NCBI GenBank assembly: GCA_002840535.1
Contig: PHBH01000026.1
Location: 11,083 to 75,082 of the forward strand
Origin: Deltaproteobacteria bacterium HGW-Deltaproteobacteria-15
Lineage (GTDB): Bacteria > Desulfobacterota > DSM-4660 > Desulfatiglandales > HGW-15
DNA length: 64,000 bases
Reading direction: 5' to 3'
The position numbers and the translations under genes were made by a program. The notes under the pieces were generated by a model. That model was not told the origin of the DNA. It did not search any database and worked only from the letters and a program-made list of their open reading frames with translations. Below, piece after piece: positions 8,924 to 51,765 of this stretch; the first letter of the stretch is position 1; each line of letters begins with the position of its first letter.

Positions 8924-8925
8924 AA

Positions 8926-11928: not shown

Positions 11929-11952
11929 TGGCGGAAGTGCATGGGAATCGAA
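11929..11952. repeat. 24-bp exact copy of the tRNA-Sec 3-prime end (distal att repeat of island A)
   Basis: TGGCGGAAGTGCATGGGAATCGAA is identical to 51669-51692 and 22057-22080. Confidence 0.85.
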
Positions 11953-12107
11953 ATCTTACACTTCTTAGTAATATCCGCTAGTTAATACCCCATCTGGGGA
12001 ACATTCGGGGAACAATGGTTCCCCAAGCCTACCTTTTCAGCTTCTCTCAGATACCCCATTTATACGGTCAATCTTGCCATAAAAGGCACAAGGAAGAAGG
12101 TGAACGA

Positions 12108-12305
12108 ATGCTAGGAACAATGAAATTTTACAACGATTCGAAAGGCTATGGTTTTGCCATAGGTGAAAACGGGATTGACTTTTTTGTTCATATTACAAAC
12201 GTAGCAGATGAAGTTATTCTTCAAACGGGTGACAAGATTGAATTTACTACACAACCATCACAGAATGGTGGTAGGCCACTAGCAGTAAATGTTAGGAAAA
12301 TTTAA
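12108..12305 (+). CDS. cold-shock-domain (CspA-like) protein
   Basis: GTMKFYNDSKGYGFAI...DFFVH matches the CSD RNP motifs (KGYGFI, FVH). Start trimmed to the ATG after AAGGAAGAAGG. Confidence 0.75.
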   Translation: MLGTMKFYNDSKGYGFAIGENGIDFFVHITNVADEVILQTGDKIEFTTQPSQNGGRPLAVNVRKI

Positions 12306-12323
12306 AGGAGCGATACAACTACA

Positions 12324-13106
12324 ATGAATGAACAAATTGAAAATCTCCGGAAGGAGTATCAAGAACTAGGCGGAAGCTTAGAAGAAGTACAATCAATTGA
12401 TTCAGTCGAAGAAATGGCCTTTTTGGTCAATCTTCAGTCAAGCATAAAAGAGTTAGAAAGTGATTCTAGTAACAATGGTTCAGAATCACAAAGTGATTTA
12501 CAATTAATTGAATCCTTGAAACAAGAACTAGAATCACTTCCGTATAATAGTGAAGAATGGAGACAACGTCAGAATCAAATACTATTTTACGAGAATAAAA
12601 CTCGAAAGGAGTTAGGACTTCAGCCAAAACAATATGAGGTACTAGACAGTGACCTAGCCAAACTGCTTCAACTTGATGGTAATGAAATATCTTCAACATG
12701 TAGAGAGTATATCTCAAAGTTTGAAGATAATATACCACTACAAAAAAGCCTAGAATTTCGGCTTACCCAGATGAAAAATAGTTTTGATCTTATACAAAAA
12801 CAGGAATTGGAGAAAACACAATTTGATGTTTTTGTGTCTTCAGCTTGGGAATCAGTAAAGAATGTTCCTGTTCGATATACCGAAGATTCAAGGGGTAAAT
12901 TGATAAAAAACCCAGGGTTTACAAAATGGTATAATTCAGCAAAGACTCTACAAACAAAGCTGAATAGCAGGATTCACTATCTTCAAAAAATGGAGCAAGA
13001 AGGAGAAGAAAATGTTGACTTACGTGAACGGATTTTCAGAATTCACAAAGACCTTTCTGCCCTATTGGAACAGCAAGGAGTGAGTAACAATGTCAGAACT
13101 AGATAA
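12324..13106 (+). CDS. hypothetical coiled-coil protein
   Basis: 260-aa AT-rich ORF, Glu/Leu/Gln-rich. No recognised motif. Confidence 0.5.
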   Translation: MNEQIENLRKEYQELGGSLEEVQSIDSVEEMAFLVNLQSSIKELESDSSNNGSESQSDLQLIESLKQELESLPYNSEEWRQRQNQILFYENKTRKELGLQPKQYEVLDSDLAKLLQLDGNEISSTCREYISKFEDNIPLQKSLEFRLTQMKNSFDLIQKQELEKTQFDVFVSSAWESVKNVPVRYTEDSRGKLIKNPGFTKWYNSAKTLQTKLNSRIHYLQKMEQEGEENVDLRERIFRIHKDLSALLEQQGVSNNVRTR

Positions 13107-13773
13107 AAATGAGCTTTTAGCATTATTCAAAGCAACAGACTTTAACAATGAAAATTCCTACCGCTTATTCTGCGAACAGTTACTCGATATTTCTGGAGCA
13201 ACTTTTTGGCAGAATGAAAGCAAGAAACTGATAGGTGAAAGAGACTCCGCAAAAGGTCGTGTTCGTGAGTTGGCAAAACTGACAGAAAAGAAGTTGGAGC
13301 AGATAAAGAAGAACAAGAATAGATCTGCTACTGATTCAAAGTTACTTGAATATCAGATTGTCAGTGAAGCAAAGAAAAACAAAAGCTATAGCCCTACTCA
13401 GATATACAAGCTACTGCGTGAAGACTTCCAGCAAGCTGAAGATAATAGTTTTTATGTTCCGATATTGGATGAAAACAAAAATGAAATCTCAAGAAAGAGT
13501 GTTGGACAATATGTCAGTGAGTTTTTGAGTAATCCTGAAAATGATAACCTCGTTGAAGCAGATAATTCAAAAGGTGGAAGTGGGCATTTTACAACCTCGT
13601 ATCCCGGTAGTAAAAGACAAGGAAAAGATAGACGTGGTAAACCGAAGTCTAGAAGAAAATATCCTCCTGAAATCGTCAAAGCGGCAGATGAACGAGGTTT
13701 AAGCCCACAAGATTGGGCAGAAATCCTCGAACACAAAAAAGAAGTAACAGCAAAAAGGAAGGGTTCAAATTGA
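13090..13773 (+). CDS. hypothetical protein with basic C-terminus
   Basis: 227-aa ORF overlapping the upstream stop. Lys/Arg-rich tail. Confidence 0.5.
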   Translation: MSELDKNELLALFKATDFNNENSYRLFCEQLLDISGATFWQNESKKLIGERDSAKGRVRELAKLTEKKLEQIKKNKNRSATDSKLLEYQIVSEAKKNKSYSPTQIYKLLREDFQQAEDNSFYVPILDENKNEISRKSVGQYVSEFLSNPENDNLVEADNSKGGSGHFTTSYPGSKRQGKDRRGKPKSRRKYPPEIVKAADERGLSPQDWAEILEHKKEVTAKRKGSN

Positions 13774-13805
13774 AGTCAAGAAGGAGAAAAAGACGTATTT
13801 ATACT

Positions 13806-13949
13806 ATGTCGGAACAAGATCTTTTAAACCGCAGAATGTATGAGAAGTTTCATTCTGTTCATACTTCACAAGAATTAGACGGGTTATTACCAGACGATTT
13901 GACCATATATCGAGATAATTTAAAACCACTGAAAAGGAGAACTAAATGA
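13806..13949 (+). CDS. small hypothetical protein
   Basis: 47-aa product from an internal ATG of ORF 13713-13949. Weak support. Confidence 0.3.
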   Translation: MSEQDLLNRRMYEKFHSVHTSQELDGLLPDDLTIYRDNLKPLKRRTK

Positions 13950-14116
13950 AAGAAACAGTATTACCTCTGCGATTAGCAGAAGTTGAAGCATTATATCTGA
14001 GATTTGGACTTAACCAAAACCAGCTCGCTAGGATATTTAGGGTGAAACCAAAAAGTATTGAACGATATTTTTACAGAATCGCAGATCGAAAGGAGAATAT
14101 AAATAATGAGCGATAG
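13946..14116 (+). CDS. small HTH-like protein (below ORF-track cutoff)
   Basis: My own translation gives MKETVLPLRLAEVEALYLRFGLNQNQLARIFRVKPKSIERYF... GGAGA precedes the ATG. The start overlaps the upstream stop (ATGA). Confidence 0.4.
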   Translation: MKETVLPLRLAEVEALYLRFGLNQNQLARIFRVKPKSIERYFYRIADRKENINNER

Positions 14117-14291
14117 TAAATGCACACTAACCTTAAGGGAAATGGATGAAGACTTAGTAAAATCCTTGAAGAAAGAAAGTAAGGAACTGAGTATGTCCCC
14201 AACTAAGCTTGTATCCTGCTTGTTTGTTTTGTATGAATTGCAATGTCGTTACACCAGGGAACAGCTAAGACAGGCTGGCCTACATGTTTGA
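14106..14291 (+). CDS. small hypothetical protein
   Basis: 61-aa ORF overlapping the previous gene's end. Confidence 0.35.
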   Translation: MSDSKCTLTLREMDEDLVKSLKKESKELSMSPTKLVSCLFVLYELQCRYTREQLRQAGLHV

Positions 14292-14400
14292 TAGATAATA
14301 TCAATTCCTAAACTTGAATGATCGAATAATTGATATTGCGGTTGATAGAGCAGTAATAGAGTAGGCAGTAAAACGTCTTATCTGCTTGATACTACAGGAT

Positions 14401-14622
14401 TTATCCCTTTTGTGATATTGCAGATAAAATAAGGGAAGGATGATAAATCCCTGCCTTTCTGACTTCCTCTAATACATTAATATAATTGGCATCTTTTAAA
14501 ATCGCATTATATAGCAGTTCCTTTCCATAGCCGAAGGCACCTACCGGCGGGTGTTGCAGGGAATAGCAGAATTCTTGAAATTGGTCCTTCACCTCAGCCA
14601 ATAGATAGAATCGAGGTGACAT
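14401..14622 (-). CDS. small hypothetical protein
   Basis: 73-aa ORF. No motif recognised. Confidence 0.35.
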   Translation of the reverse strand: MSPRFYLLAEVKDQFQEFCYSLQHPPVGAFGYGKELLYNAILKDANYINVLEEVRKAGIYHPSLILSAISQKG

Positions 14623-14749
14623 CCTGCAACACCTATTTATACATTTATGAAGCTGAGAAAGTAAGAATTAGGCCGAAAAGTGGCAAAATGGGAAGTAAGA
14701 AGGTACTTTTGGAAGTTACAAAATGACCTTAATACAATCAATCCAACAA

Positions 14750-15229
14750 TCATTTCGTTGAAGTTTCGAATTCGTCCATCCATGGTTTCACCTTGTCGTA
14801 AGGTACCTTTGCGACCTTGCAAAGTGTCTCATCGTCGAGATTTAACTCATTCTGCCTTTTACGAATCTCGCTCAACCATTTGTGTAGAAGCCTAGCTTCA
14901 ACATCTTCAAGACCGGTCGAAATTGACCTTGATTTATGTACCCGGACAATAATATCTGCACTTATCCAAGCCCGAAAGTAAAGTCCAAGTAAAAAGGGCT
15001 CAGTATCCATACTCTTTTGTGCGTTTACATTTCGGATTTGGCTGACGCATTCTGCTACTCCAGAAACATTTCCGGCATTGCACGAAGTGGAAAAAGAGTC
15101 TGAGCCTCTTTCAATCTCAGATCTCACGGTCATCACCTTTTTTTCCACTGGAGCATCTAGGTCAGCAGTTGAACAGATTTGAGGAATGGACAAAACCAGC
15201 ACTACGATCGAGACAATTAGCTTTTTCAT
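14750..15229 (-). CDS. secreted hypothetical protein
   Basis: Start trimmed to the ATG after GGAGGAAGG. N-terminus MKKLIVSIVVLVLSIPQICSTA looks like a signal peptide. Confidence 0.5.
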   Translation of the reverse strand: MKKLIVSIVVLVLSIPQICSTADLDAPVEKKVMTVRSEIERGSDSFSTSCNAGNVSGVAECVSQIRNVNAQKSMDTEPFLLGLYFRAWISADIIVRVHKSRSISTGLEDVEARLLHKWLSEIRKRQNELNLDDETLCKVAKVPYDKVKPWMDEFETSTK

Positions 15230-15370
15230 TTCCCTTCCTCCTTTTGTGCATGTAGCCGCCGCAGGGACTAGATAGTTTTTGAAATTGGCTGTAGGAGATT
15301 CCACCGCCTTTGTGGTCACCGTGAATTCTCGTTGAATTCTTCTGAATCAACTTTCTTTACCATACTAGTC

Positions 15371-15727
15371 TCATTTCTTCTTTTGTATGCTGTCATCTTC
15401 AATGAGCCATATCTTATTTGAACCTTGGATCACTACATTTCCATATTTATCATGAAATCTCTGTTTCTCGAAAAGTTTAGCCTTCAGCTTGTCCTTTTTT
15501 ATAAAACGATAAATTGTGTGTGTGCTAATTCCCCACAATTGCGCCGCTTTCTGTACGGTTACGACTGGTTGTGTATACGTGAAGTATTCGCAATTCCAAC
15601 ACCCCTTGTACTCAAATGTTCTGACATCAACATCGCAGCCTTTGTAGTCAACATGTGTTGGATTGCTGCATTCTCCAATGATCTGTCCTTCTTCGAAGAT
15701 GGAAAAGGATTCTTCTTTTTCCTGCAT
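15371..15727 (-). CDS. HTH DNA-binding protein (excisionase/MerR-like HTH) with Cys-rich N-terminus
   Basis: VTVQKAAQLWGISTHTIYRFIKKDKL HTH segment. Lies immediately upstream of the small recombinase gene. Confidence 0.55.
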   Translation of the reverse strand: MQEKEESFSIFEEGQIIGECSNPTHVDYKGCDVDVRTFEYKGCWNCEYFTYTQPVVTVQKAAQLWGISTHTIYRFIKKDKLKAKLFEKQRFHDKYGNVVIQGSNKIWLIEDDSIQKKK

Positions 15728-15796
15728 CTTTCCTCCTTTCGTGTTCGGATAGGGTCTAGAATCCCTCAGAATCGACTTTTGAACCTGATCGAATAG

Positions 15797-16471
15797 CTAA
15801 CCCCATAAACCTTTAACCTGTTCCTGCAATTCCTCTTTGGTGACATCCGCATAGATCGTAGTCGATTGAATAGAGACATGCCGAAGTTGCTTTTGTACTG
15901 CCCGTAAATCTTTGTTTTGTTTGTATAAAGCTACAGCATAAGAATGCCTAAGAGAATGAGCAGACTTCCCTTTCTCGTATAATCCTAGTCTTTTCAGGCA
16001 CTTTTTTATAATCAACTGTAAGGCTTGACTTGTTACCTTTCCTCTCTGACCTTGGAACAATGGAGCATCAGAAGAAATATCTTCCCTATGCTGCTCCTTC
16101 CATAGCAAGAACGTCTTGAGATGACGCTTAAGCGAATCAGGAATGACAACCATACCGGAGACATTTCCTTTTCCATTTCGCACATGGATTTCTGCTTGTC
16201 CGTGTCCGATACGCAAATCTCCGCAACATAGGTTTGCTGCTTCACTGACTCGTAGGCCACTACTGGTAAGCAGATCGACAACCATCCAAGTCCTAATCCC
16301 TGTTACAGTCCCTCTTGAAGCTGATACCTCAGCCTGTTCTCTTGCCAGTCTCCGAAGTGCCTTGATTTCAGCTTCAGAGTAGTATCGAAGCTTGTCTAGG
16401 TTAACGTGTCTCCGCTCCTTCTTCTTCTCGTTAGCGGTACGGATAGGTAGCTGAATAAGGTTTGATACCAT
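15797..16471 (-). CDS. small tyrosine recombinase (XerC/D-like)
   Basis: Catalytic-domain motifs GLRVSEA, HSLRHSYA and LRHVSIQSTTIYADV (R...HxxR...Y). Confidence 0.85.
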   Translation of the reverse strand: MVSNLIQLPIRTANEKKKERRHVNLDKLRYYSEAEIKALRRLAREQAEVSASRGTVTGIRTWMVVDLLTSSGLRVSEAANLCCGDLRIGHGQAEIHVRNGKGNVSGMVVIPDSLKRHLKTFLLWKEQHREDISSDAPLFQGQRGKVTSQALQLIIKKCLKRLGLYEKGKSAHSLRHSYAVALYKQNKDLRAVQKQLRHVSIQSTTIYADVTKEELQEQVKGLWG

Positions 16472-17465
16472 ACATTCACCTCCATGAAAAGTTTTCTATA
16501 CAGTTTGGAAACCGTTTGAAGGGTGTAACTAGCTGATCGCTTGTTGTGCCAACACCCAAACTGAAAAGAAAATCTATAGACTGTTTTGAGTTTCTGTAGG
16601 GCAAAAAAGAAGGGCAGAGGAACAGCACTTGCTTGTGTGTGTCCCTCTGCCCTATGTCCTTCACCATACCGTTATAGCTGGTACTGGATCTTAACGAGCT
16701 ACTGCATAGCGCTATGCAGCTAAAGTACAACCGGGAGTCTCACGTCAATCTCGGTGTGACAGTTGCCCTTCAAACCGGCTTCCTTGATCCTGCTCAGATG
16801 CCTATCTCAAAGAGCGATTCGGCTGAAGTGTTCCTCATGCACTATCAGGTTAAACATGTTATAGGTTGATACAAACAATGCTCATACTTCCATCACATTG
16901 TAAAGTTTGGCAGGATTCACAGTGCTGGTAAGCTCTTGGAAGTGTTAATTAAAATGGCTGTATCAATACAAATTGATAATGCTTTTCCCTAACTTCCTGG
17001 TTGACTTAAAGTGATCTCAATTCAAGGACATGGACTGACTGTAGTAATTATAAGAAGTCAAGAAATATGTGCTTTTTCTGTATCATCTGTGATACGCCAA
17101 TCTATTGGCCTTGTGTCATAATTCTAACACATAGTGCTGCTATATTGACTGGCATGTGTCGAGTATTTGTTTACCGCTAGGTCAACTTATGTATGCGGAT
17201 AGGTTAACAAGCGAACACATAATGGCTTTAGATAACTTCGATGTTGCATCGGAAGGTATGCCACCCTATTCACCATATCGCATGAAAAAGTCGAAAATGT
17301 TGGAACATGTCCGGTATTACAGATGAATGCCTCTTCAGGTTTAAGCCTTCAGAACAGTTGAATATTAGCTATTAACATTTGAGCTTGCGAAAAACACAGC
17401 AATATACGAAGATAACGACCCACAACCATACAATTCCATCGACTCAGCAAACAAAGGGGGGGGGT

Positions 17466-18155
17466 ATGAGAGGATTATTGATGAGCATCTGCCTATCAGC
17501 GACCATTTGCACGTTTTCTTCATGTACCTTTCAATTAACTCATCATTTTATAGACAAACTAAAGCCAGAGGAACTATACCTAGAATATAATACTATTCCC
17601 AAGGATCTTAAAGCCATATCGAACTGTGAACAAACCCCCTCCATAAACATAATAAGTTCCGAGACTAGAGACAGTTACAATATTCCTTGGGGACCGTACA
17701 CATATCATGTGATACCAAGCCAACTTATGGAAAAGGTCGCTGATTACATGAGAACGGGGTTCGCGAAAACAGGTGTGAGGCCTGATAGCAGTTGCCCTAA
17801 AACTATTCGTATTTTCTTCGAAGAAATCAAGTTCTTGAAAGGCTTCTGGGTAATCGGTGGTTTTTTTCGCATGAAGGTAGCAGTCCCTGAAATTGGATAC
17901 ACGCAATACTATGAAGCTGAGGAGTGGTCAGGAAGTGGTGCCCTATACCAAACACTTAATTCCATACACATCTCTACGCAAAAAGTCATTGATGACCCTG
18001 TTATTCAGGGGTATATACTCTGCCGAGATGAAAACATCCGGAAGAAGCAGTCATTAGCTGATAGGCTACAAGAACTGAGGGAAGCTTTGGACAGAAAGCT
18101 AATTTCGTCAGACGAATACGAGTCTGCTCGGCAAAGGCTAATTGAATCTTATTGA
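17466..18155 (+). CDS. lipoprotein with C-terminal SHOCT-like motif
   Basis: MRGLLMSICLSATICTFSSC lipobox-like leader. C-terminal LISSDEYESARQRLI resembles the SHOCT domain. The ATG is preceded by a G9 run. Confidence 0.6.
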   Translation: MRGLLMSICLSATICTFSSCTFQLTHHFIDKLKPEELYLEYNTIPKDLKAISNCEQTPSINIISSETRDSYNIPWGPYTYHVIPSQLMEKVADYMRTGFAKTGVRPDSSCPKTIRIFFEEIKFLKGFWVIGGFFRMKVAVPEIGYTQYYEAEEWSGSGALYQTLNSIHISTQKVIDDPVIQGYILCRDENIRKKQSLADRLQELREALDRKLISSDEYESARQRLIESY

Positions 18156-18623
18156 CTGTACGAATGATGTCATTCCATGCTGATGACACATAAGGCACTG
18201 AAAACACTAGCGTCAGTTTTTTGTTGACAATCAGAAGTCATCATTATACAAAGCGACTTCCGGTGAGGCATCCCCAATCATGGGAGTCTCCAGCAGCGAC
18301 TAAAGCACCACACATTATCAACCTTCCAAAACACCCTGCCCCTTTTTTTCTGGAACACTCCAGAAATTTCTCCGGTTTTATAATTTGTCAACTTTTTTTG
18401 AATTAATATTTTTTTGCGACTACGTCCTTTTTCCACTATCCAAATCACGTTATTAGAAGCACACTTTTTTAGAGGCAGACGCGGTCTGAATCATATATCA
18501 AAATCGTCTGAAGTGAACCGTCATTAGTGTCTTAGCTGGACATGACCGAAAGTTCTCTCTACTAACTCTCTTGCTTTCTACGGTTTACTTCAGACTCCAT
18601 TTCTAGAGAGGAAGTGTTTAAAA

Positions 18624-20051
18624 TTGTTAGAGTATATACATTTAGATGATTCGATTTTATTCGATACCTATTGTGTATCTGAAATCAATGGGTTTATTGA
18701 TCTTACAGAATATATCCTAGATGAAATTGGACTGAGAAACGATAAAAGCAGAGATTATTACAAAAAAAGGGACTTTCTAAGAAACATGTTAGCGAATCTT
18801 TATATTTCTGAAAGGATAAATAGACCTGTTGCCATATCAAAGGATAGGAATAGCTGGAAATGTGTGGAGAGGTATCACAAACTTTTCATGACATACAGAA
18901 CCATGAAATTCGTCTTTGACAGGATGACTTCGGCAAAACTGATAGTTTCATATAAAGGTTTCAATATTCCTAAAACCTCTTTCAGTTATAACACTCGTTT
19001 TCATGCTACCAGTAAGCTGGAGAATTTAATTAATCGTTTTGTTCCAACTTTAGAGTTTATTCCGGCTGAACTTGATCAGGATTACATTTTACTAAAAGAT
19101 CAGAAGAAATTCCTATCCGGATATGAAGATGATGAAAATACTGTAGAAATGCGAAGGCAACTTACTGATTACAACGAATTCATGTCAGATCAGGAGATTT
19201 CAATCAGCCTAGATCATATATTAGAGCCTCTTAGCAAAACAATCAGGGAATACCAGCTAAAAGGATTTCTTACAATCCCTAATTCCAACTATAACACTAA
19301 TTCTCCTACTCCTTCCAATCTAACACCTTACCCCTTACACACCATTACTCAGAACGTTCATTACAATGAACAGGAAGCATGGTTATTGGGATTAAAGCAG
19401 GTTAGATCTTCTAGAATCTTTAACACAGATTTCAGCCATGGCGGTAGGTTCTACCACAGTATTCATCTGGTTTTCGGTAAAGAACAGAGGAAGGAAATAC
19501 GGATAAATGGGGAAAGAACATGCGAGTTAGATTATTCAAGTCTACATCCTCGGATGCTCTACAACATGTCAGGGATTGCCTTTGAAGGAGATTGCTATAG
19601 CGATATTTCTGACTCTCAGGAGGAAAGAGAGTTAGTCAAGGAAGTCATGCTAACAATGATCAACATTTCTAAAGAAAAAAAAGATAAGTTACCTGCTTCG
19701 GTGAACAAGGAGATTAAAAAACATAATTCCCGTCAAAAATTCCTACCGGTAGGACAGAGGATTTATAAAAAGGGGATTCCGTATAAGAAAGTATGGGAGT
19801 ATGCGGATAGAATTGAGAAATATCACTCCCCTATTGCTGAATATTTTAATAGCGGCATCGGTTTACGGTTACAGAATTTAGATAGCCACATAATGAGCAA
19901 TGTTTTGAACGATTGCTATAGGGAAAAAGTAGCTTCCTTACCTGTTCATGACAGTTGTATTGTTAAAGAACGGGATAAGGATTTTTTGTATTCATCAATG
20001 GTTAGAAATTACCAGAAAGTTATGAACGGATACACTCCGGTAATAAAATAA
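18624..20051 (+). CDS. hypothetical protein with polymerase-palm-like motifs (possible element replication protein)
   Basis: TTG start after GAGGAAG. GGRFY, ELDYSSLHPRMLY and LPVHDSCIV segments resemble motifs A and C of family-A/T7-like single-subunit polymerases. Confidence 0.5.
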   Translation: MLEYIHLDDSILFDTYCVSEINGFIDLTEYILDEIGLRNDKSRDYYKKRDFLRNMLANLYISERINRPVAISKDRNSWKCVERYHKLFMTYRTMKFVFDRMTSAKLIVSYKGFNIPKTSFSYNTRFHATSKLENLINRFVPTLEFIPAELDQDYILLKDQKKFLSGYEDDENTVEMRRQLTDYNEFMSDQEISISLDHILEPLSKTIREYQLKGFLTIPNSNYNTNSPTPSNLTPYPLHTITQNVHYNEQEAWLLGLKQVRSSRIFNTDFSHGGRFYHSIHLVFGKEQRKEIRINGERTCELDYSSLHPRMLYNMSGIAFEGDCYSDISDSQEERELVKEVMLTMINISKEKKDKLPASVNKEIKKHNSRQKFLPVGQRIYKKGIPYKKVWEYADRIEKYHSPIAEYFNSGIGLRLQNLDSHIMSNVLNDCYREKVASLPVHDSCIVKERDKDFLYSSMVRNYQKVMNGYTPVIK

Positions 20052-20119
20052 GGGTTGTACAGGACCATTCAATCTGTACGTAGCTTCAACAAATTAGAAC
20101 CTTTTTTATAGGAGAAATT

Positions 20120-20320
20120 ATGAGTAGAAAAGTAATGAAGCTGGTAAATCCTTATACCGGGGAAATGGTTTGCAAAGTATGTGGTTCACAACATTTTGCA
20201 AGTATTAAACCGAGCTGTAATGGACATTACTACCGGGGTTCATGGCAGTGTATTAACCATTGTAAACTGGAGGATTTACAAGAGCCTGAACAATCTGAGG
20301 AACAAGGGGAAAAAAGTTAG
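20120..20320 (+). CDS. small zinc-ribbon-like protein
   Basis: AGGAGA before the ATG. CKVCGS...C..H and CINHC pairs. Confidence 0.45.
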   Translation: MSRKVMKLVNPYTGEMVCKVCGSQHFASIKPSCNGHYYRGSWQCINHCKLEDLQEPEQSEEQGEKS

Positions 20321-20582
20321 TTAACCAGAATCCTGCCCTTTCCCTCAGAAGGGCAGGAAATACCCAAAATCAAGAGCTACAGGGACTTTCTACAGGAAAC
20401 AGGTATAGGGTGTTAGGGCATTTGGAACTTAATTCAAAACTATAAGAAAGGCAGCGATATGATTATTGATTTTCGACAAAGGACGCGTTGGAATGAAAAC
20501 CTCAAAACGAAACTCATTGACTTCAGGAAAAAAGTATGCTTCGGATTCTCTCAAATCCAGCAAGGATTCGGAGGGATTCTGC

Positions 20583-21710
20583 ATGAAAGGTTCAATCCAG
20601 TTCAGGAAAGATCGGGGATTGTACTATGTTAGCTGGTACGATCAGGCAAGCAAAAGACGATATAAGGTCTACAAATACAAAGGCGAGTTCCTCTATTCGG
20701 AAAAGGTTGCACAAAAGTTGCTTGCCTGTATGCAGAATGATTTCGAAAGAAAGATATTCAGGATTGAAAATTACCTAGATGATAGTGTCTCAGATGTATG
20801 TAAATATCTCGATGAATGGTTGACTACAATAAAGAGTTTTTTGAAACCCGGTACAAGTAAAGACTACGAGAATTCTGTTAGAAATTATCTAAAACCTTTC
20901 TTTGAACAAAAGAAGATAGGTTTAGCAGAAATACAATACGATACTTTGCTTGAACTAATGAATTTCATTGATAGGTCTGGTAAAGGTAGATTGAACGTTA
21001 TGTATTGTTTGCATTCCTGCTTAGACCACGCATGGAGAAGCAGAAGAATACCTAACATACCTCCATTTCCAAGAAAGAAGCAGTACAAAATCGAGAAAAA
21101 GCCGATTGTCTGGTTGCCGGAGGAAAGACAGATTGCTGTTATTAAATCCATTCCTGAAATTCATCAGCCTATTTTTTGGTGGTTGAAGTTTCATTTCAGA
21201 AGGGAAGGGGAAGCCTGTGCTCTCCGAAACGAAGATTTTGACGGAAAGATTTTCTATATTCACAGAACGGAATCAGCTAGGGTTTTCACCGATACCACCA
21301 AAACGGGAGAAATCCACAACATCGCTATGGTAGATTCTTTTAAACCTTTTCTAGAAATGGAAAAGGAGAAACAGAAGAAAATGAGCATAATTTCAAGGTA
21401 TTTTTTTGTAAATCCAGTGGGCAAGGAAGAAGGGAAACCATACCACGTTAAGACCCTAGGAGATATTTGGAACAAAGCATGTTCGGAACTAGGAGAACAT
21501 ATCAGATGCTATGCAGGGACAAAGCACTCTTCTTGCTCTCAGTTTATAAACGAAAAAGGCGGTACAGAATCAGAATTGCAGATGATAACAGATCATGCTC
21601 GATTAGAGTCTGTAAGAAACTATGCCCGAACTGAGGTAGCCAGAAGGAAAGAGCTAATGGAAAGGAAAGTTGTTTCTCTTCAACCTAAGACCATTGGAGG
21701 TAAGGCATGA
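20583..21710 (+). CDS. tyrosine integrase of island A
   Basis: Phage-integrase-type architecture. The N-terminal MKGSIQFRKDRGLYYVSWYD arm-binding-like start was chosen over the upstream TTG at 20466. C-terminal ...GTKHSSCSQF...HARLESVRNYAR. Adjacent to the 67-bp selC repeat. Confidence 0.8.
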   Translation: MKGSIQFRKDRGLYYVSWYDQASKRRYKVYKYKGEFLYSEKVAQKLLACMQNDFERKIFRIENYLDDSVSDVCKYLDEWLTTIKSFLKPGTSKDYENSVRNYLKPFFEQKKIGLAEIQYDTLLELMNFIDRSGKGRLNVMYCLHSCLDHAWRSRRIPNIPPFPRKKQYKIEKKPIVWLPEERQIAVIKSIPEIHQPIFWWLKFHFRREGEACALRNEDFDGKIFYIHRTESARVFTDTTKTGEIHNIAMVDSFKPFLEMEKEKQKKMSIISRYFFVNPVGKEEGKPYHVKTLGDIWNKACSELGEHIRCYAGTKHSSCSQFINEKGGTESELQMITDHARLESVRNYARTEVARRKELMERKVVSLQPKTIGGKA

Positions 21711-21985: not shown

Positions 21986-22056
21986 AAATGAATCGGATTC
22001 GGGGAACAATCGGGGAACAAATCAGAAGTAAAAAGGTTAATGATGTTAATAGGATA

Positions 22057-44629: not shown

Positions 44630-46175
44630 CGGTCGGCTCCATCGGGCGGACAACCTTTTCGATGAACGCGATCTCACCAGCGGAGATGCCATATTTCGCG
44701 TAGAGGTTTTCGTCCGTCCACCGCTTCGTCCACTTCTGGGTTGGCACGAAGGAGTAAACCTTGCGAGTCGTGTCTTGGGATGGCTTATGCAGAAGAATCA
44801 GGAGGCGAGTTAACCGACAAGAAAGGTAGGACAACACGCTTTCAGCCTGATTCTTGGAGTCGAACGGGCCAATGCAGAGATAGGTCTCCGAAGAGATGGT
44901 GCCCGGCGCTCCGAGGAACGGTGTGCTTATGATCTTGTGCGGGTAGGTGTCTCTGTTCCCAGTCCCTGGAGCAGCCCGGCCAGTGAACACCTTCCATTTA
45001 TTGATGAGGGGGATGCCAGTTGAAATCGACCTTCTGGAGACGTATGCAGTGCCGCCATTCTGATAGACGAGGACATCACCGGTGCTCTTGGCAATTTTGC
45101 CCTTGAAAGTCGTCTCTAGCCCGAACGGCTTTCGAGAGCTGACCAATCGGTCGAAACGTTTGCTTTCAGGGAGCGAAAGCGAGCCGGGTTTTCCGTTCTC
45201 AGCGGCGACGACCTTCTTGAGGATCGACAGGCCCTCATTGAAGCGGATGAATACGTCAACGCCCCTTTCAAGAAGCGGACGGCTGGCGGTCGAGATAGGC
45301 CAATCCTTGTAATGAGTGGTGACTCGGCAGGGTCCGGGATTGTCGCGGTCCCAGAGGAAGTAGCAAACGCCACCCTTGAGACCCACGCCAGGAAAGACAT
45401 CCGATGCGCTCAGATAATCGTCAATGGAGCGCAACCGGTCATCAGCGAGCATCGACTCCCGGAACTCATCTAAGCCCTTTCCTCCCGCAAACCAACGGGA
45501 GGGAATAATCATGGCCAGGAATCGCGGCTTCAGTTTTTTCGCCTGTTCAACGAACAGATGGTAGATCGGACGGGCGCTCTCTCCAAAACCAGCATCGCTC
45601 AACTGGTAAGGGGGATTGCCAATGATGACATCAAATTTCATGCTGAATATCTCCTCCGGCTTGTCGGTATGAATGAACGCGTAGGCGTGACTTTCGAGTT
45701 CGCCACCCCTTTCGTAGTTCTCCTTGCTGGCCCCGCACAAAACGCAACGGCCGTCCTCCCAAGAATGCTCAACGCGCCCAAAACGGATGTTCCCCTCAGG
45801 GTTGTCGAAGGCTTCGCATACCGAATACTTGCCGTTGGCCGTCTTGGAGCAATACACGGACCGGCGCGAAAGCAGCGAGGTCAATTCCGTGATGCCGAGT
45901 CCGAAAAGCTGGTTCTTGAAGATGTAGTTCATCCGCTTCTGGCGGTCGGGGATTTGCCGCTCCAGTCCTTTATCCAGCCGCTTCGCGATCTCACGGAGAA
46001 ACACGCCCGACTTACTGCCAGGATCGAGGAAGGTCGCCTTCTTGTCGCTCCACAGGTCCGCCGGCAGCAGGTCAAGAATCCGGTTTACCGGTTGCGGCGG
46101 CGTGAAGACCTCATCACTGCTCAGGTTGGCGATACAGGAAAGCACATCCGGGTTGTATCCGCTACTGTTGAACAT
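44622..46175 (-). CDS. N6-adenine DNA methyltransferase (Eco57I-like, NPPY)
   Basis: [21 protein letters not shown]-terminus. Motif [13 protein letters not shown]. Motif [10 protein letters not shown]. Start trimmed to [11 protein letters not shown]. Confidence 0.8.
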
Positions 46176-46860
46176 GGGCGATCTCCATAAAGTGAACCGC
46201 GGGATATTCCTTCTTCGGCCTCGGGATGAATACCTTTTCACCAAGATCGGAGAAGAGGGGGAGTCGTCCGGCTCTTTCCTTTTCCAAATCAGGGAAGAGA
46301 AAGGTTTGTCTTGTTTCCTTATGCCGTAGCAATTCGCTAAAAGTGAAGTCCCTCCGCTTGAGCATGCTCCCGTTAACCGGCGACCACTCGGAAAAGACGA
46401 TGTAGTCGGGGGGGTCGCAAACCATTTTAAGTGTGAGTGCGTCGCCCCAGATAATGTTTCGGTCGAGAATGAACCGGACCGTTTCGCGGCATTTGTTCTT
46501 GGCGCGGTTCTTGAACAGCCGGGAATAAAAATCGCAGTCGAAGAGGCCGTAAAGCCGATGACGACATTGCCGGACGTTGTCCTCTAGGATGTCAATGCCA
46601 TAGATCGAAGTGATGGCCAGAATGGAGTAGCGCTCAAAGTCCAGTTGCGACTTACCGTAGCGCTTTTCCACAACCGCCAACTTCCGTTCCAGAATTACAG
46701 ATAGGAAGTTGCCGTTGCCGCAAGCAGGCTCTAGGAAACGGGAGTCGATCCGCAGTGTCTCCTGCTTCACCAGATCGAGCATGGCGTTGACCTCGTGTTT
46801 CCCGGTCAACACCTCGCCATGATCAGCGACTCGCTTTTTCGATATGATTTGCGATTTCAT
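46162..46860 (-). CDS. short methyltransferase-like protein with apparently degenerate catalytic motifs
   Basis: Motif [13 protein letters not shown] is present. GEVLTG replaces the usual GEVFTP, and no canonical (D/N)PP(Y/F) is seen (only CDPPDY). Confidence 0.6.
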
Positions 46861-46902
46861 TGCTTATTTCCTCTAGTCGAGAGGACTCAATTGGCATCCG
46901 TA

Positions 46903-47433
46903 TTAGCCGAGCGGGAAGGTCTTCAATTTACGCTTCTGAAACTCACGCCACTCCCTCGGACTCACATACCTGCTCCCCTGAACCCACATCCCCCGCTTCG
47001 CCTGCCGGGCTTCCTCTTCAGCCTGCCGGGAAGGATCCCGGTCAAACCCATGCGGTGGATCCCCGCGGTAGACCTCCGCAAAACCGACTTTCACCATCTC
47101 CAGGTTTATGTTCTTGCCATCAAGCGAGATCACCCCGAGAACGCGGCCATACCGATCGGTGCCATACCCTTTGACGTCCACGGTCTTGTTCAGGACCATT
47201 GCGGCAAGGTACTTGGTAGCCTGTCTACTGAAGGGCTGACCCTCTTCTCTCTTCTTGCTGGAAGCTTCAGGTGCATCGATTCCAACCAGGCGGACCTTGA
47301 TTTCGATGTCATGCCCTTCGGCTTTGATCGTGTCTCCGTCGTAAACGCGGGTGACTTTGAACTGGCCGGCATAGCCAACCAGCGGAATGAGTAAGACGGT
47401 TAAGAAAACGGCCCATCTTGCGAAAGCCTTCAT
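46903..47433 (-). CDS. secreted thermonuclease (staphylococcal nuclease homologue)
   Basis: Signal peptide MKAFARWAVFLTVLLIPLVGYA. SNase motifs DGDTIK, VRLVGIDAPE and TDRYGRVLG. Start trimmed to the internal ATG. Confidence 0.85.
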   Translation of the reverse strand: MKAFARWAVFLTVLLIPLVGYAGQFKVTRVYDGDTIKAEGHDIEIKVRLVGIDAPEASSKKREEGQPFSRQATKYLAAMVLNKTVDVKGYGTDRYGRVLGVISLDGKNINLEMVKVGFAEVYRGDPPHGFDRDPSRQAEEEARQAKRGMWVQGSRYVSPREWREFQKRKLKTFPLG

Positions 47434-47687
47434 GATCTCCCTAGGAAAACCAGCTTGATTATCTACATCAGCACGATTGCCGACATGATGAGCATCCAGA
47501 TCCACTTTTGCTTCTTTGAATCCTTGTCGTTGCCCATGTTTTAAGGCCACACAGAGAGGCTTGCCCTCATTAGACGGCTGCAATTACCATCAGTCCACAA
47601 ACCACCATGCAACCTAGCAGGACCAATGCTCTTTTCCTTCCAAGTCTGTTAAGATCCTCGACCATCATATCAATCATGACAAGCACC

Positions 47688-48233
47688 TCATTTCAGTATG
47701 GCTGAGACGATATCCCTGTAGATGTTGAAGGTGATTCTATCCTCTTTGCCCCGCTCTATATGGCCTATTGAATTTCGATGATGACCCACCAGTTCTGCAA
47801 ATTGCACCTGGGTCAATCCCTGCCTTCTTCTGTATTCACGAACAAGTCTCCCGAGATCCTCAGGAGCCAAGGTCAGAATTGATAAGTTATGCCATGCCTC
47901 ACGCGGCATCTCAACCAGAACATTTCCAGAAGGGGCATCTTGGATCTTTCGGAGGGCCTTACCGAAACCGACTTTGCTTTTCTTAGAGAGCCATTCGTGA
48001 AGAGGCAATTCATCTATTCTCTTTCCAGCACAGAGGGGGCATCCGCTTCCACGGGTTCTGGTGTAGGCTCTCGTTCTCCATTCATGGCCCTTCTCACATA
48101 CCCACCAAATCATTTTCTGAGACATAGGGGTAATGTCTCGAGGTTTCAATTCCCCGTTCTTCTCGGGATGCCATTCCTCCAGGAGATGAGGATTTGCAGT
48201 CAGGAAATTGTAGGTCTCTGTGGCTCTTCCCAT
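47688..48233 (-). CDS. zinc-ribbon (DUF4379-like) plus XRE-family HTH protein
   Basis: N-terminus NPHLLEEWHPEKN...IWWVCEKGHEW...GSGCPLC. C-terminus RRRQGLTQVQFAELVGHHRNSIGHIERG. Confidence 0.7.
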   Translation of the reverse strand: MGRATETYNFLTANPHLLEEWHPEKNGELKPRDITPMSQKMIWWVCEKGHEWRTRAYTRTRGSGCPLCAGKRIDELPLHEWLSKKSKVGFGKALRKIQDAPSGNVLVEMPREAWHNLSILTLAPEDLGRLVREYRRRQGLTQVQFAELVGHHRNSIGHIERGKEDRITFNIYRDIVSAILK

Positions 48234-48235
48234 CG

Positions 48236-49036
48236 TTACTCAACCACCCGAAGTGAATAATTCGGTTTCAGCTTCTCCCATAGTTTCTTAATGATCAGGA
48301 AGGAAGCACTGTCTGCATCCAAATCCTTTTTCCCAGCTGCAAGACGGCAGGAATTCATCAAGGCAACGTTCCCAAGAGAAAGCTCGAACTTGTCCCGTAT
48401 CCATGCACCGAGTTCAGGATGCAGGTAAATCAGTTCCCCCTCAGCCATCCTTGCAAGCTTGGTCTTCGCTTTCATGTCCATCTTTCCAAGGAGGGTCTCC
48501 AGGGCTTCCTCGATGGTCCTTGGCAAAATGGGGGATTCTCGCTGAGGGTCTGGCATCTCCTCGTCCACAGTGGCCATGTGGTAGAAGGCTTTCAGGACTT
48601 TGAGGGTCTCTTGGTAGATCTTCGGATCCCTGCTTGCCCGGGGACCGACGACGTTCAACACTTCGATTCCGTAAGCAGAGATCCAGTTGATAATCTTGCC
48701 CGCAGCAAGAAAGGCATTCGTCTTGGCCAGATCGATATGGAGGCAAGGTCGTTTTTGTTCTTCGGCCATCTTCTTGGTCCTGAGAGAACCGCCTGCAAGC
48801 TTCCCGTGTGAAATGATCAGAGTTCCATGAGATTCGAGGATGTTCTTTTCCGTTCGGGCGGGATAACTGGAGGTTGGCATCTCCTGGACGTTGTACTTCT
48901 CGGGGATGATCCCGTCTTCGGCCTTCCTCCCCTTGGGGACCCATCCGCCATGAGGGATGCTTACTTCAATGGCGAAGTCGAGAGCTGCACGGTCGGCACC
49001 GGTTTGGGCGCCTGAGATGATCTTTGTGATTCTCAT
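48236..49036 (-). CDS. cpYpsA-type SLOG-domain protein (formerly 'putative molybdenum carrier') with C-terminal DUF6794-like domain
   Basis: ISGAQTGADRAALDFA...GGWVPKGR...NVVGPRAS is the circularly permuted YpsA/SLOG signature. C-terminal LHPELGAWIRDKFEL...DADSASFLIIKKLWEKL. Confidence 0.7.
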   Translation of the reverse strand: MRITKIISGAQTGADRAALDFAIEVSIPHGGWVPKGRKAEDGIIPEKYNVQEMPTSSYPARTEKNILESHGTLIISHGKLAGGSLRTKKMAEEQKRPCLHIDLAKTNAFLAAGKIINWISAYGIEVLNVVGPRASRDPKIYQETLKVLKAFYHMATVDEEMPDPQRESPILPRTIEEALETLLGKMDMKAKTKLARMAEGELIYLHPELGAWIRDKFELSLGNVALMNSCRLAAGKKDLDADSASFLIIKKLWEKLKPNYSLRVVE

Positions 49037-49293
49037 GAGCGCTTCTTAGTCTGGTACTCCGTTTGGTCCTGCTTCTAATGCCTTTCTCGATGAGTAGTTG
49101 CGAGAGGGCATCGACATGGATCATTCTTGCCATGAGAAGTTCCTCGAAGGGAATCTCTTCTCTCTATTCGGGTGGTTATTTCAGATCCATGGCCGACGGC
49201 TTCAGATCATACAGGGTTTCGAGGCTGTTCACCATGTCCGAGTCCAGACTGTGGCCACTGCTCGCCCCCACGAACCGATTGAGAACCTCACAA

Positions 49294-50145
49294 TCATGAA
49301 CTCATACCCGGAAAGGCTCCTATGGGTTCGATTGACTTAAGAATCTCAAACAGACTGGCAGAGTTGACTACTAGGATCGTTCTTTCTTTAGCTTGTGCAA
49401 GCCCGCGAAGGCTGCTTTTCTTGATATTTCTTCTATCAGCCATACTAATGGTGGATGTTGTAATACTCTTTCTAAATCTAATGAACGGCACGGTTTCAAA
49501 GTTTGCTTCTGAAAGGTTGCCGTCGAGTAACGAAATATTATCTGTAGCAAATCTACAAACCCTAATTTGCGCGGAAGTTATAATCATGGGTACATAAATC
49601 CGGTTCTGCGGTCTTTCTCTCAAACAAAGTTCCTCCACGGCAACAGCATATGTCGAGTCCAGGAGCCTCGCTGAAATCCGTTCCAGCATGGGTTTATCCC
49701 TGTCACCTTCGCCTCGAATTATACACATATCACTTTCGGGGGAACTAGGAGTGAGTGAAAAATCTGAGTAGCCGATTAGCATAAGGCGCTGTTTGTCTGG
49801 AGTGGCAGTTGGAACGTGCCCTTTAACATAGAAGCAGGAAGCAAGCATGGTTTGTTGTCTTTGAGAGTCACTAGTCTGTACAAGGAATACCCATTGACCC
49901 TGATCAACACGCTTACACTCCACTATTAAGACAAATGCCGTGTGACGGCAATGTTCCAGAATAAGATCAATGTACCCGTCAGTGCCCTCTTTGGAATTTA
50001 CCCAATGATGTTCCCAAGAGGCCACTTCCCATGGTAATGCTCCACGTTCCTCGACTTCTGTTTTCACACGCCATTGGAACAAATACCCATGTTTGTTAAC
50101 CAGCTTGAGTAAGTCTCTATTGTGATTATCAATTTCCTTCTGCAT
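49294..50145 (-). CDS. hypothetical protein with PD-(D/E)xK-like core
   Basis: GYIDLILE...FVLIVECKR fits a D...ExK nuclease motif. AT-rich gene. Confidence 0.5.
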   Translation of the reverse strand: MQKEIDNHNRDLLKLVNKHGYLFQWRVKTEVEERGALPWEVASWEHHWVNSKEGTDGYIDLILEHCRHTAFVLIVECKRVDQGQWVFLVQTSDSQRQQTMLASCFYVKGHVPTATPDKQRLMLIGYSDFSLTPSSPESDMCIIRGEGDRDKPMLERISARLLDSTYAVAVEELCLRERPQNRIYVPMIITSAQIRVCRFATDNISLLDGNLSEANFETVPFIRFRKSITTSTISMADRRNIKKSSLRGLAQAKERTILVVNSASLFEILKSIEPIGAFPGMSS

Positions 50146-50358
50146 TAGCCATTCCTACTAGCCTTATGGAAAATTGATAACGATTTTTATAGGGTTCCTA
50201 CCTTACCGTCAACAACTTTGTATCTGAGGCACTCGGAGCAACTCATGGCAATCTGGGGCTATAAGGCGCAGTGAAAATTTAGTACGGATTGAATTATCTT
50301 GACAACAAGGTATTCTTAAATACAATAGATACAAATAATACAGAAAGGGGTTGATCAA

Positions 50359-50517
50359 ATGGCAACGGTAAACCTGAGAGACTTTCCGGACCAGCTCCAT
50401 AGAGAAGCGAAGGCGAAGGCTGCATTGATGGGTATTTCCCTGAGGGATTTTGTTGTCAGGGCTGTAGAGCTCTTCTTGGAAGAGGAGAAGAAGCGGGAAA
50501 AGAAAGGAGCGAAGTAA
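50359..50517 (+). CDS. ribbon-helix-helix (Arc/CopG-like) small protein (below ORF-track cutoff)
   Basis: My own translation gives MATVNLRDFPDQLHREAKAKAALMGISLRDFVVRAVELFLEEEKKREKKGAK. Ends 1 nt before the integrase ATG. Confidence 0.5.
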   Translation: MATVNLRDFPDQLHREAKAKAALMGISLRDFVVRAVELFLEEEKKREKKGAK

Positions 50518-50518
50518 G

Positions 50519-51649
50519 ATGGAATATCCTATCGGGTGCATTTACAAACGGGCAAAGTCTCCCTTCTGGTGGGCGAAGATCGTTCCTTACAAGGGAGGGA
50601 AGCCAGTCTTTGAAAGCACAAAGCGCACACGGCAGGACCACGCGGAGACATGGCTCAAAGACCGGATGAAGGATTTCAGGGTTGACCTTGGGCATGTCCG
50701 ACCGGAGCAGGTAACCTTTGACGAACTGGCTAAGGACCTCAAAACGGAATACGGGATCGAGGGCAGGAAGAGCCTTGACCGGTTGGAGAACAGTATCGGT
50801 CACCTTGAGAAGGTCTTCACCGGCATGCGCGCTATGGAGATCAACACGGCCAGGGTGAAGCGATATATTGAACTGAGGCAGTCCGAAGGCGCGCAAAACG
50901 GAACGATCAACCGGGAGCTGGCCGCACTGTCCAAGATGTTCAGCCTTGGGGCTCAGAACACTCCCCGGAAGGTTCTTACTATTCCCCACATTCCGAAGCT
51001 GAAAGAGGCGAACCCCCGGAAGGGTTTCTTTGAGCCTGCCGAGTATCAGGCTGTCCTGTCCCAACTGCCCGGGTTCTACCGGGGGCCGGTTACCTTCGCC
51101 TATTACACCGGATGGCGGCAAGGGGAAGTCCTGGACCTGAAGTGGTCGAATGTGGATAGGGAAGGGGGCATGGTTACTTTGGACGTGGGGACCACAAAGA
51201 ACGATGAGGGCCGAACGGTCTACATGACAGAGGAACTAAGGACCCTCCTAGAAGCCCAATGGGAAGAGCGGAAGGCTTCCGGCAAACTATCCCCCTACGT
51301 GTTCCCGAATGAGAGCAGAACGAACCGGATACTAAAGACCCGATTCAACCGGGCATGGCGGAAGGCATGTGAGAAGGCGGGCCACACGGAGAAACTGTTT
51401 CACGACCTTCGAAGGACGGCCGTCAGGAACATGGTCCGGGCAGGGATCCCGGAACGGGTTGCAATGATGATCAGCGGCCACAAAACCCGGAGCATCTTTG
51501 ATCGATACAACATCGTTGATGACAAGGACCTGAGGCAGGCGGCACAGAAAATTGAAGCTTATCATGGCGCACAGGTTACACCAGCGGTTACACCGAAGGT
51601 TAGAAGCCTGTCCGAAGGCAATAGAAAAGGGATTAACCATGCCAGCTAA
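50519..51649 (+). CDS. tyrosine integrase of island B
   Basis: Phage-integrase architecture. GWRQGEVLDL, HDLRRTAVRNM and GHKTRSIFDRYNIV (R...HxxR...Y). Ends 19 nt before the tRNA-Sec 3-prime end. Confidence 0.9.
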   Translation: MEYPIGCIYKRAKSPFWWAKIVPYKGGKPVFESTKRTRQDHAETWLKDRMKDFRVDLGHVRPEQVTFDELAKDLKTEYGIEGRKSLDRLENSIGHLEKVFTGMRAMEINTARVKRYIELRQSEGAQNGTINRELAALSKMFSLGAQNTPRKVLTIPHIPKLKEANPRKGFFEPAEYQAVLSQLPGFYRGPVTFAYYTGWRQGEVLDLKWSNVDREGGMVTLDVGTTKNDEGRTVYMTEELRTLLEAQWEERKASGKLSPYVFPNESRTNRILKTRFNRAWRKACEKAGHTEKLFHDLRRTAVRNMVRAGIPERVAMMISGHKTRSIFDRYNIVDDKDLRQAAQKIEAYHGAQVTPAVTPKVRSLSEGNRKGINHAS

Positions 51650-51668
51650 CCCCTTGAATTTCCGCCTT

Positions 51669-51765
51669 TGGCGGAAGTGCATGGGAATCGAACCCACCTG
51701 CCAGGTTTTAGCCCGGCACACCGGATTTGAAGTCCGGGAGCCCCACCAGTGAGCTTTCCACTTCC
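51669..51765 (-). tRNA. selC: tRNA-Sec (anticodon UCA)
   Basis: 97 nt: GGAAGTGG...GGACTTCAAATCC...GGTTCGATTCC...CACTTCCGCCA. Anticodon loop CU-UCA-AA, 7-bp variable arm, encoded CCA. Close resemblance to E. coli selC. ORF 51332-51721 merely translates it. Confidence 0.9.

Follow-up and report, generated by a model that had tools for sequence, protein, structure and literature searches.

How did the 3' end of one selenocysteine tRNA (tRNA-Sec) gene come to stand three times, in a single orientation, along the same bacterial contig? The question is raised by a 64,000-nt stretch of Deltaproteobacteria bacterium HGW-Deltaproteobacteria-15 (GCA_002840535.1, contig PHBH01000026.1, positions 11,083 to 75,082), referred to here as the window, for which an earlier note had proposed successive site-specific insertions at tRNA-Sec, with the repeats marking their ends. 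Relatives that retain an empty site support this proposal, and we find that the locus very probably contains two unrelated integrative elements, islands A and B, each with its own tyrosine integrase (IntA and IntB), inserted site-specifically in tandem at a single tRNA-Sec gene. The principal features are as follows (GC, guanine plus cytosine content; fdh, formate dehydrogenase genes; Sec, selenocysteine):

51875..52990, minus strand: asd (aspartate-semialdehyde dehydrogenase), right flank, upstream neighbour of tRNA-Sec (Pfam families)
51669..51765, minus strand: intact tRNA-Sec, anticodon TCA (ARAGORN; Rfam RF01852)
50519..51649, plus strand: IntB, canonical tyrosine integrase, directed at the tRNA and ending 19 bp short of it
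22124..51668: island B, 29,545 bp, 50.7% GC, bounded by an exact 67-nt direct repeat and absent from empty-site genomes
22057..22123, minus strand: displaced 67-nt tRNA-Sec 3' fragment, 100% identical to 51669-51735
20583..21710, plus strand: IntA, divergent tyrosine integrase with three domains, directed at the 67-nt copy
11953..22056: island A, 10,104 bp, 38.9% GC, bounded by an exact 24-nt repeat and absent from empty-site genomes
11929..11952, minus strand: displaced 24-nt tRNA-Sec 3' fragment, an exact copy (k-mer scan, alignment)
11316..11840, plus strand: 174-aa gene after the Sec-dependent fdh operon, left flank, which adjoins tRNA-Sec in empty-site genomes

The tRNA-Sec gene is the sole tRNA in the window (ARAGORN), scores 73.6 bits against the Rfam tRNA-Sec model RF01852 (gathering score 47), and matches over 97/97 nt the tRNA at unoccupied sites in six related contigs (L223 and L230-L234, described below). 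Its 3' 67 nt, at 51669-51735, recur in a fragment that takes in the final 3 nt of the anticodon stem's 5' strand and continues to CCA (k-mer scan, direct alignment), while the 24-nt block, TTCGATTCCCATGCACTTCCGCCA in the tRNA sense, begins at the first T-loop nucleotide and ends at CCA (25 nt if one flanking T is counted). The 24-mer has three matches in the window at up to 3 mismatches, against 0.00 expected (100 shuffles). Both fragments are direct repeats in the orientation of tRNA-Sec, and the order along the locus is tRNA, island B, 67-nt fragment, island A, 24-nt fragment and original downstream flank, such that the copy at 22057-22123 is at once the far end of island B and the int-proximal attachment (att) site of island A, and the copy at 11929-11952 is the far end of island A. 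The earlier description of a 97-nt tRNA-Sec with exact 67-nt and 24-nt 3' copies is correct to the base, and the integrase genes it placed at 50519-51649 and 20583-21710, reading toward tRNA sequence, are both present.

The earlier note had called for a comparison with relatives in which the site is empty, and five near-relative contigs without an island, whose alignments break exactly at the repeats, now supply it. These contigs, found by searching with the 174-aa left-flank protein (P0121, 96% identical; P0124, 89%), are L230 (GCA_002840495.1, Deltaproteobacteria bacterium HGW-Deltaproteobacteria-21), L231 (ERZ27239243), L232 (JGI 3300029821), L233 (ERZ27239239) and L234 (ERZ795126). All share the gene order fdhA-fdhB-fdhE-162aa-174aa-tRNA-Sec-asd-Sir2, with one tRNA-Sec, one core copy, and neither integrase nor island. 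In blastn alignments their left parts match the window with 90-96% identity (90% in L234) as far as position 11952 and no further, and their right parts resume at 51668 at 91-98% identity; the left and right alignments overlap by 25 nt, which correspond to the core, and a multiple alignment agrees base by base. These genomes join window position 11952 to 51668/51693, which identifies the 39.7 kb enclosed by the outer repeats as an insertion. The tRNA was suggested to have sat originally about 90 bp from the gene following the fdh operon; the distance is 89 bp in L230, and in the window 88 bp separate the stop of the 174-aa gene (11840) from the 24-nt copy (11929).

Relatives with 85-88% asd identity (L222, L223/L224 and L226/L227) similarly have asd followed by tRNA-Sec, with one core copy and no integrase. 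The genes downstream of the tRNA in L222, L223 and L226 differ from the window and from one another, and these contigs therefore provide no test of the left boundary. The asd-tRNA-Sec synteny is preserved in every relative examined. A scan of genome contigs with asd found no close relative, the best match having 67-68% identity.

An abrupt change of base composition had also been claimed at 11.95 kb and 22.1 kb, and it is seen in the GC profile, which steps from 0.52 to 0.40-0.35 at the first position and from 0.41 to 0.51 at the second. Overall GC is 54.8% in the left flank, 38.9% in island A, 50.7% in island B and 53.3% in the right flank. The tetranucleotide usage of island A correlates at only 0.03-0.21 with the flanks and at r = 0.41 with island B, and GC within island B differs between blocks, from 45% to 54%.

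The window derives from metagenome assemblies, and the layout might be an artefact in which contigs were joined through the shared 67-nt or 24-nt tRNA sequence, with the AT-rich island A as the main suspect. Logan contigs built with short k do end at the 67-nt repeat (L005 at 51706, L216 at 22094 and L221 at ~22086), as a repeat of that length should cause them to, and Logan contig L012 breaks at 11952. We consider an artefact very improbable, however, as independent assemblies from different samples span all three junctions at 99.8-100% identity. The left junction, whose 24 nt are below any k used, is spanned by L007-L011, including two k=31 Logan assemblies, the middle junction by L213-L215, L219 and L220, and the right junction by L001-L004; the contigs over the middle and right junctions include k141 MEGAHIT and JGI contigs from several samples. 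Moreover, the ends of island A bear matching candidate arm-type motifs, described below. The break in L012 is explained by a co-occurring empty-site strain that does not differ from the window between 11909 and 11952 and diverges from there on; at 11908 the strain of the window has a T of its own. We rejected the end of this contig at 11952 as a sign of excision, since the 44 nt shared with the empty-site strain account for it.

With the junctions of the tandem array established, a conventional mechanism can be proposed. The attP of each element would bear a copy of the 3' part of tRNA-Sec, and recombination would rebuild an intact tRNA at the integrase end and push the old 3' part to the far end. 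Judging from where identity starts, the crossover of island B would lie in the anticodon loop, leaving the 67-nt identity block, and that of island A in the T loop, leaving the 24-nt block; the 3' 67 nt of the intact tRNA (51669-51735) would be the copy delivered by island B. The junctions that we reconstructed are attP_A, attP_B, an A-only attB consisting of the int-A end, the 67 nt and GGGAGCCCC, and a B-only junction consisting of the left flank, the core and CCCACC...TCCTATTCCCCG. We infer that the islands possess arm-type sites and may continue to be mobile.

The order of arrival is a separate matter. The earlier note stated that island A entered first and island B followed, and here the structure does not bear it out, as both orders yield an identical sequence and all copies are 100% identical. 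Island B could have come first, with island A then inserting into the T arm of the displaced 67-nt fragment, which holds a complete T arm and the 24-nt core; the end product would be base-for-base the same as with A first, including three identical copies. If A came second, it would have had two possible targets, one of which gives the observed layout, whereas B, if second, would have had a single target, because the 24-nt fragment has no anticodon loop. This reasoning makes A first about twice as likely beforehand, a weak prior under which A probably preceded B and the reverse order is the unlikelier of the two, though still a realistic one.

Several observations weigh against two separate site-specific insertions. 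The segment profile has no sharp GC step at 51.7 kb, the tRNA end of island B; IntA scores 26.2 bits against Pfam Phage_integrase, where the gathering cut-off is 27.1; IntA has a Lys where the second catalytic Arg is expected; and no genome with A alone or B alone was found. Given the Pfam score and the Lys, the activity of IntA is deduced from the conservation of its family together with the clean att structure, and given that A-only and B-only genomes were not found, two separate arrivals in this lineage are presumed.

The last of these observations would be expected if A and B had come together as a 39.7-kb composite, whether assembled in another host and then transferred by homologous recombination in the flanks, or moved by co-excision and integration via the outer core copies. 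There are two states only, both islands or neither, with no A-only or B-only arrangement in 8 IntA contigs and 8 AbiU contigs. A joint arrival is nevertheless improbable in our view: the islands differ in GC and tetranucleotide usage as given above, they have separate integrases and tRNA fragments of different length, and relatives of each integrase occupy tRNA-Sec alone in other organisms (L126, L104 and L105). Because of these differences and the existence of solo relatives, the tandem must have been built from two separate events at some point.

The candidate arm-type sites of the two elements are located at their ends:

11993..12015, plus strand: TCGGGGAACAA at the far end of island A, a candidate arm-type site for IntA, with a degenerate copy before it, TCTGGGGAACA
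21999..22020, plus strand: two tandem exact copies of TCGGGGAACAA at the int-proximal end of island A, candidate arm-type sites
22242..22261, plus strand: GTGTAACY motif pair at the far end of island B, candidate IntB arm-type sites
51574..51593, minus strand: GTGTAACC motif pair at the int-proximal end of island B, inside the int 3' end

IntA matches the PHROG 'integrase' family phrog_1 at 2e-30, and its AlphaFold2 model (predicted local distance difference test score 90.5) consists of an N-terminal beta domain for arm binding, followed by core-binding and catalytic domains, with Tn1549 Int (3e-10) and lambda Int (1e-9) as best Foldseek matches. A PDB sequence search with a 5-sequence IntA profile gave no match. 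There are more than 400 IntA homologues, mostly in Desulfobacterota; an alignment of 40 shows no variation at R207, K240 and Y347, and at least 90% of its members have H338. The Arg II position is occupied by the invariant K314 and the His II position by A311, as judged from hhalign against IntB and an hmmsearch alignment to archaeal XerA (4a8e). About 0.5% of tyrosine recombinases have Lys at Arg II, and the Cre variant R292K is still moderately active (PMC2943603); such a Lys-for-Arg active site is rare but documented. IntB is recognized by Pfam PF00589 (Phage_integrase) at 93.7 bits and has the complete catalytic set R-K-HxxR-H-Y, found as GWRQGE, TTKND, HDLRR and GHKTRSIFDRY in its translation.

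The 11-mer TCGGGGAACAA occurs exactly three times in the window (12005, 21999 and 22010), always in the same orientation and within 60 nt of the ends of island A. Because of this placement, and because the IntA model has an N-terminal arm-binding domain of the lambda/Tn1549 type, the 11-mers are likely arm-type sites. In island B, GTGTAACY has 11 matches in the window against 1.5 expected, four of them in pairs at the two ends of the island; the GTGTAACC pair also encodes a VTP repeat within int, which makes it weaker evidence for arm-type sites than the 11-mers of island A. IntA resembles the heterobivalent integrases (lambda Int, Tn1549/Tn916 Int) in its three predicted domains, and repeated 11-mers stand in both arms of its element; it differs from them in the family's invariant K314 for Arg II and Ala for His II. 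One broader interpretation, which we would place somewhat short of an even chance, is that the IntA clade targets the T loop of tRNA-Sec and works with Lys for Arg II and without His II, that both islands are still active, and that island B is a satellite-like carrier of anti-phage defence.

Tandem insertions of this kind are well known. In the Islander/TIGER resource (Hudson, Lau & Williams 2015), there are 125 tandems among 3,919 islands, and T-loop/T-stem and anticodon-loop are the two main crossover classes listed for tRNA gene (tDNA) islands (PMC4383910). Similarly to those arrays, the present locus has an intact tDNA and, for each island, a displaced 3' fragment in tRNA orientation and an integrase of its own, with B in the anticodon-loop class and A in the T-loop/T-stem class. 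It differs in its uncultured Desulfobacterota-type host, known solely from metagenomes, and in its tRNA-Sec target, not in principle. Everything by which Islander recognizes a tandem array was found here: the intact tRNA, the displaced fragments, the integrases (IntA under the Pfam cut-off) and the absence of the islands in relatives. The locus is a textbook tandem tDNA island array, the product of an ordinary and well-known kind of event, and it leaves the current understanding of how genomic islands work unchanged. For an uncultured Desulfobacterota lineage of the subsurface, it documents cleanly and to the base how islands accumulated in tandem at tRNA-Sec, and it is accompanied by the corresponding empty site; it also provides two sets of attP, attB and integrase that may be reused, one of which has the rare Lys-for-Arg active site.

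The contigs with identical flank proteins are all metagenomic (JGI 3300038336 and 3300038334; ENA ERZ27239240-44; Logan SRR3546450-55), and the nearest named relatives are metagenome-assembled genomes of Thermodesulfobacteriota/'Deltaproteobacteria'. We therefore place the host among uncultured bacteria of the Desulfobacterota and sulfate-reducer type, outside the enterobacteria. The enterobacterial selC hot spot to which the earlier note referred holds as an analogy and fails as a frame for the host, which belongs to the Thermodesulfobacteriota/'Deltaproteobacteria' lineage. The selC islands of enterobacteria (LEE, SHI-2) share the tRNA-Sec attachment site and an integrase beside the tRNA, and tRNA-Sec-integrating elements of Pseudomonas, Proteus and Paracoccus use the same attachment site, with many such cases in the literature; the enterobacterial islands differ in host phylum, and the cargo here is defence or unassigned, not virulence. 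The tRNA-Sec sequence of the window appears to differ from that of E. coli selC.

A scan of metagenomes with the 24-nt core returned at least 120 contigs. Among the matches listed, none belongs to this population, IntA-like genes (48-51% identity) adjoin tRNA-Sec in L126, L042 and L113, IntB homologues with 54/43/42% identity adjoin it in L104, L043 and L063, and a B-like int end follows it in L105. An integrase stands beside the tRNA in ~5/56 of the listed loci that share the tRNA 3' end and have enough downstream sequence; tRNA-Sec is an occasional rather than a dominant target in these lineages. One IntB relative with 43% identity is located at tRNA-Lys (L235). IMG/VR scans for the int-proximal junction of island A and the far-end junction of island B gave no match.

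Two further loci carry copies of the tRNA 3' end. In L016, exact 24-nt core copies at 39-62 and 7798-7821 are 7.76 kb apart, with two large open reading frames (ORFs) between them (743 and 1171 aa); the 600 bp next to the tRNA end contain no ORF of 150 aa or more, and this may be an integrase-less island at tRNA-Sec. L237, a 49.7-kb IMG/VR sequence predicted to be viral, encodes an IntA-like integrase (45% identity; region 10001-11867) and has a 27-nt tRNA-Sec 3' fragment 725 bp beyond int, in a relative orientation opposite to that in the window. The fragment probably marks a phage attP that belongs, like that of island A, to the T-loop class.

The insertions also changed what follows the tRNA gene, as the signals around it indicate:

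51773..51800, minus strand: promoter-like site TTGACT-16-TATACT, TG-extended, just upstream of tRNA-Sec (consensus scan, pattern match only)
51627..51655, minus strand: terminator-like hairpin and T run, supplied by island B (consensus scan)
11886..11907, minus strand: native terminator-like hairpin, kept in empty-site genomes

The island B hairpin lies 14 nt past the regenerated tRNA-Sec, and the native hairpin, once downstream of the original tRNA position, is now 39.7 kb away from the tRNA. The only tRNA-Sec, on which the neighbouring Sec-dependent formate dehydrogenase relies, now owes two-thirds of its sequence to an island and would be terminated by the hairpin that the island supplies. 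In L222, the 29 nt that follow the unoccupied tRNA-Sec (9851-9879) match window 51640-51668 at 27/29 positions, without the second hairpin arm. This stretch could be a scar of a lost B-like element, or a native tRNA trailer that was retained in the attP of island B.

The cargo of island B, mainly genes for defence against phages, comprises the following:

23209..29851, plus strand: defence block (PADLOC, Pfam) with AbiU/AIPR 23209-24924, DUF5677, DUF1883-TIR 27313-28089, DUF2971/PDC-S31 28112-28798 and a nuclease-like gene 28859-29851
26120-26434: dead integrase fragment, the C-terminal part of a third tyrosine recombinase (PF00589 at 56 bits, last 45 residues of the domain only)
32488..35015, plus strand: replication module with a DnaD-like loader 32488-33261 and a primase-helicase 33258-35015
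42086..46860, minus strand: three-gene restriction-modification-like operon

In the defence block, PADLOC identifies AbiU (3e-104), a PDC-S66/ThsB-like TIR protein (5e-70) and PDC-S31 (3e-15). The DnaD-like loader matches phrog_2514 at 8e-27, and the primase-helicase matches phrog_239 at 1e-73 as well as Pfam Toprim_2 and DnaB_C. The restriction-modification-like operon encodes a 232-aa MmeI_Mtase-like protein, an Eco57I-type methyltransferase and a T5orf172 plus ResIII helicase/nuclease; a frameshift in the methyltransferase genes was considered and rejected, as they are two genes with a 14-nt overlap. Other genes of the island encode an SU10-adaptor-like protein, an SNase and cpYpsA. The dead integrase fragment suggests that island B is itself a mosaic.

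No capsid, terminase or lysis genes were recognized among the proteins of islands A and B (Pfam, PHROG), which hold only the replication module and one adaptor/tail-like protein. No relaxase, type IV coupling protein or type IV secretion system is among the Pfam matches of the ORFs of either island, several of which match nothing. Neither island has the features of a complete prophage or of an integrative conjugative/mobilizable element. From its gene content, and because capsid, terminase, relaxase and type IV secretion genes were not recognized, we regard island B as a phage-derived integrative element or defence island. Its gene complement makes a phage satellite possible: similarly to defence islands and to satellites resembling phage-inducible chromosomal islands (PICIs), it encodes, besides an integrase and several defence proteins, a primase-helicase with a DnaD-like loader and one protein resembling a virion adaptor. 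The PICI-like pattern is limited to int, the primase-helicase and the adaptor-like gene. Island B differs from PICI-like satellites in having no recognized capsid, terminase or packaging-redirection genes, and its 29.5 kb exceed the usual size of satellites.

Two families of short repeats are found in island B. An element of ~55-60 nt, CACTCCCTCGGACTCACATACCTGC...CCACATCCCCCGC..GCCTGCC, occurs in three copies that are 83-97% identical (38898-38957, 41515-41574 and 46948-47007) and bracket two cargo modules; two of them are found 40-90 nt ahead of operons on the minus strand, namely that of a protease gene and the restriction-modification-like operon. The element could serve as common regulatory sequence or mark the edge of a cassette. 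A 48-nt repeat is present in three copies at 36753-36836 and 37438-37485, each with an internal direct repeat AGTCCGCA..AGTCCGCA, which flank a small ORF (36844-37167) beside the replication and adaptor genes. Iterons, an origin and a packaging signal are possible roles for these repeats.

Island A is a small AT-rich element whose cargo has no assigned function, and two of its regions are listed here:

15371..16471, minus strand: second module, with genes for a short tyrosine recombinase (224 aa) and for an excisionase-like HTH_17 protein
18624-20051: 475-aa protein, PHROG 4756 (3e-55)

The 224-aa recombinase matches Pfam PF00589 at 87.4 bits, and the HTH_17 match, at 26.6 bits, is slightly below its cut-off. 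PHROG 4756 relatives of the 475-aa protein are annotated 'hypothetical protein' in 243 phage records (Rheinheimera, Vibrio and Aeromonas), and the protein has no Pfam match and no PDB sequence match. By eye, its DYSS..H and VHDS motifs may recall polymerase palm motifs. The remaining cargo includes a cold-shock-domain protein and proteins without recognized function. Two independent assemblies stop at ~14500-14550 within the island (L010 at 14551 and L011 at 14502), on the downstream side of a small HTH_Tnp_4 ORF; their ends suggest that this part of island A is repeated or varies between strains.

The chromosomal flanks encode, in addition to asd and the 174-aa protein, FdhB, FdhE, Sir2, PBP1A and the following:

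5879-8923: fdhA, Tat-exported, with an in-frame TGA at 6458-6460 followed by a U-H-S motif

FdhA is a selenoprotein, and the hairpin downstream of its TGA has a folding energy of -23.9 kcal/mol (z = -2.0). The proximity of fdh to tRNA-Sec described in the earlier note is confirmed within this species group and does not extend to the relatives with 85-88% asd identity, which have other genes in its place. Each lineage of the group has a different content in the first 6-7 kb downstream of tRNA-Sec, and none has an integrase there: this stretch holds the fdh operon in the window and in HGW-21, a GT20 gene in L223, and YdjM and DnaJ in L222, and in L226 an acetyltransferase lies 22 nt from tRNA-Sec. 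The direct joining of tRNA and acetyltransferase in L226 raised the possibility that the fdh block (5553-11928) is an older island, which we rejected as unsupported; no tRNA remnant was found near 5553-5878, and the composition of the block is host-like (r = 0.80). The intergenic region before fdhA, at ~5600-5670, contains a relic of a histidine-kinase ATPase domain (GIGFDEKCLAQIFKPFERLHGND). In L234 a full 816-aa PAS kinase occupies this position, and the window therefore carries a deletion.

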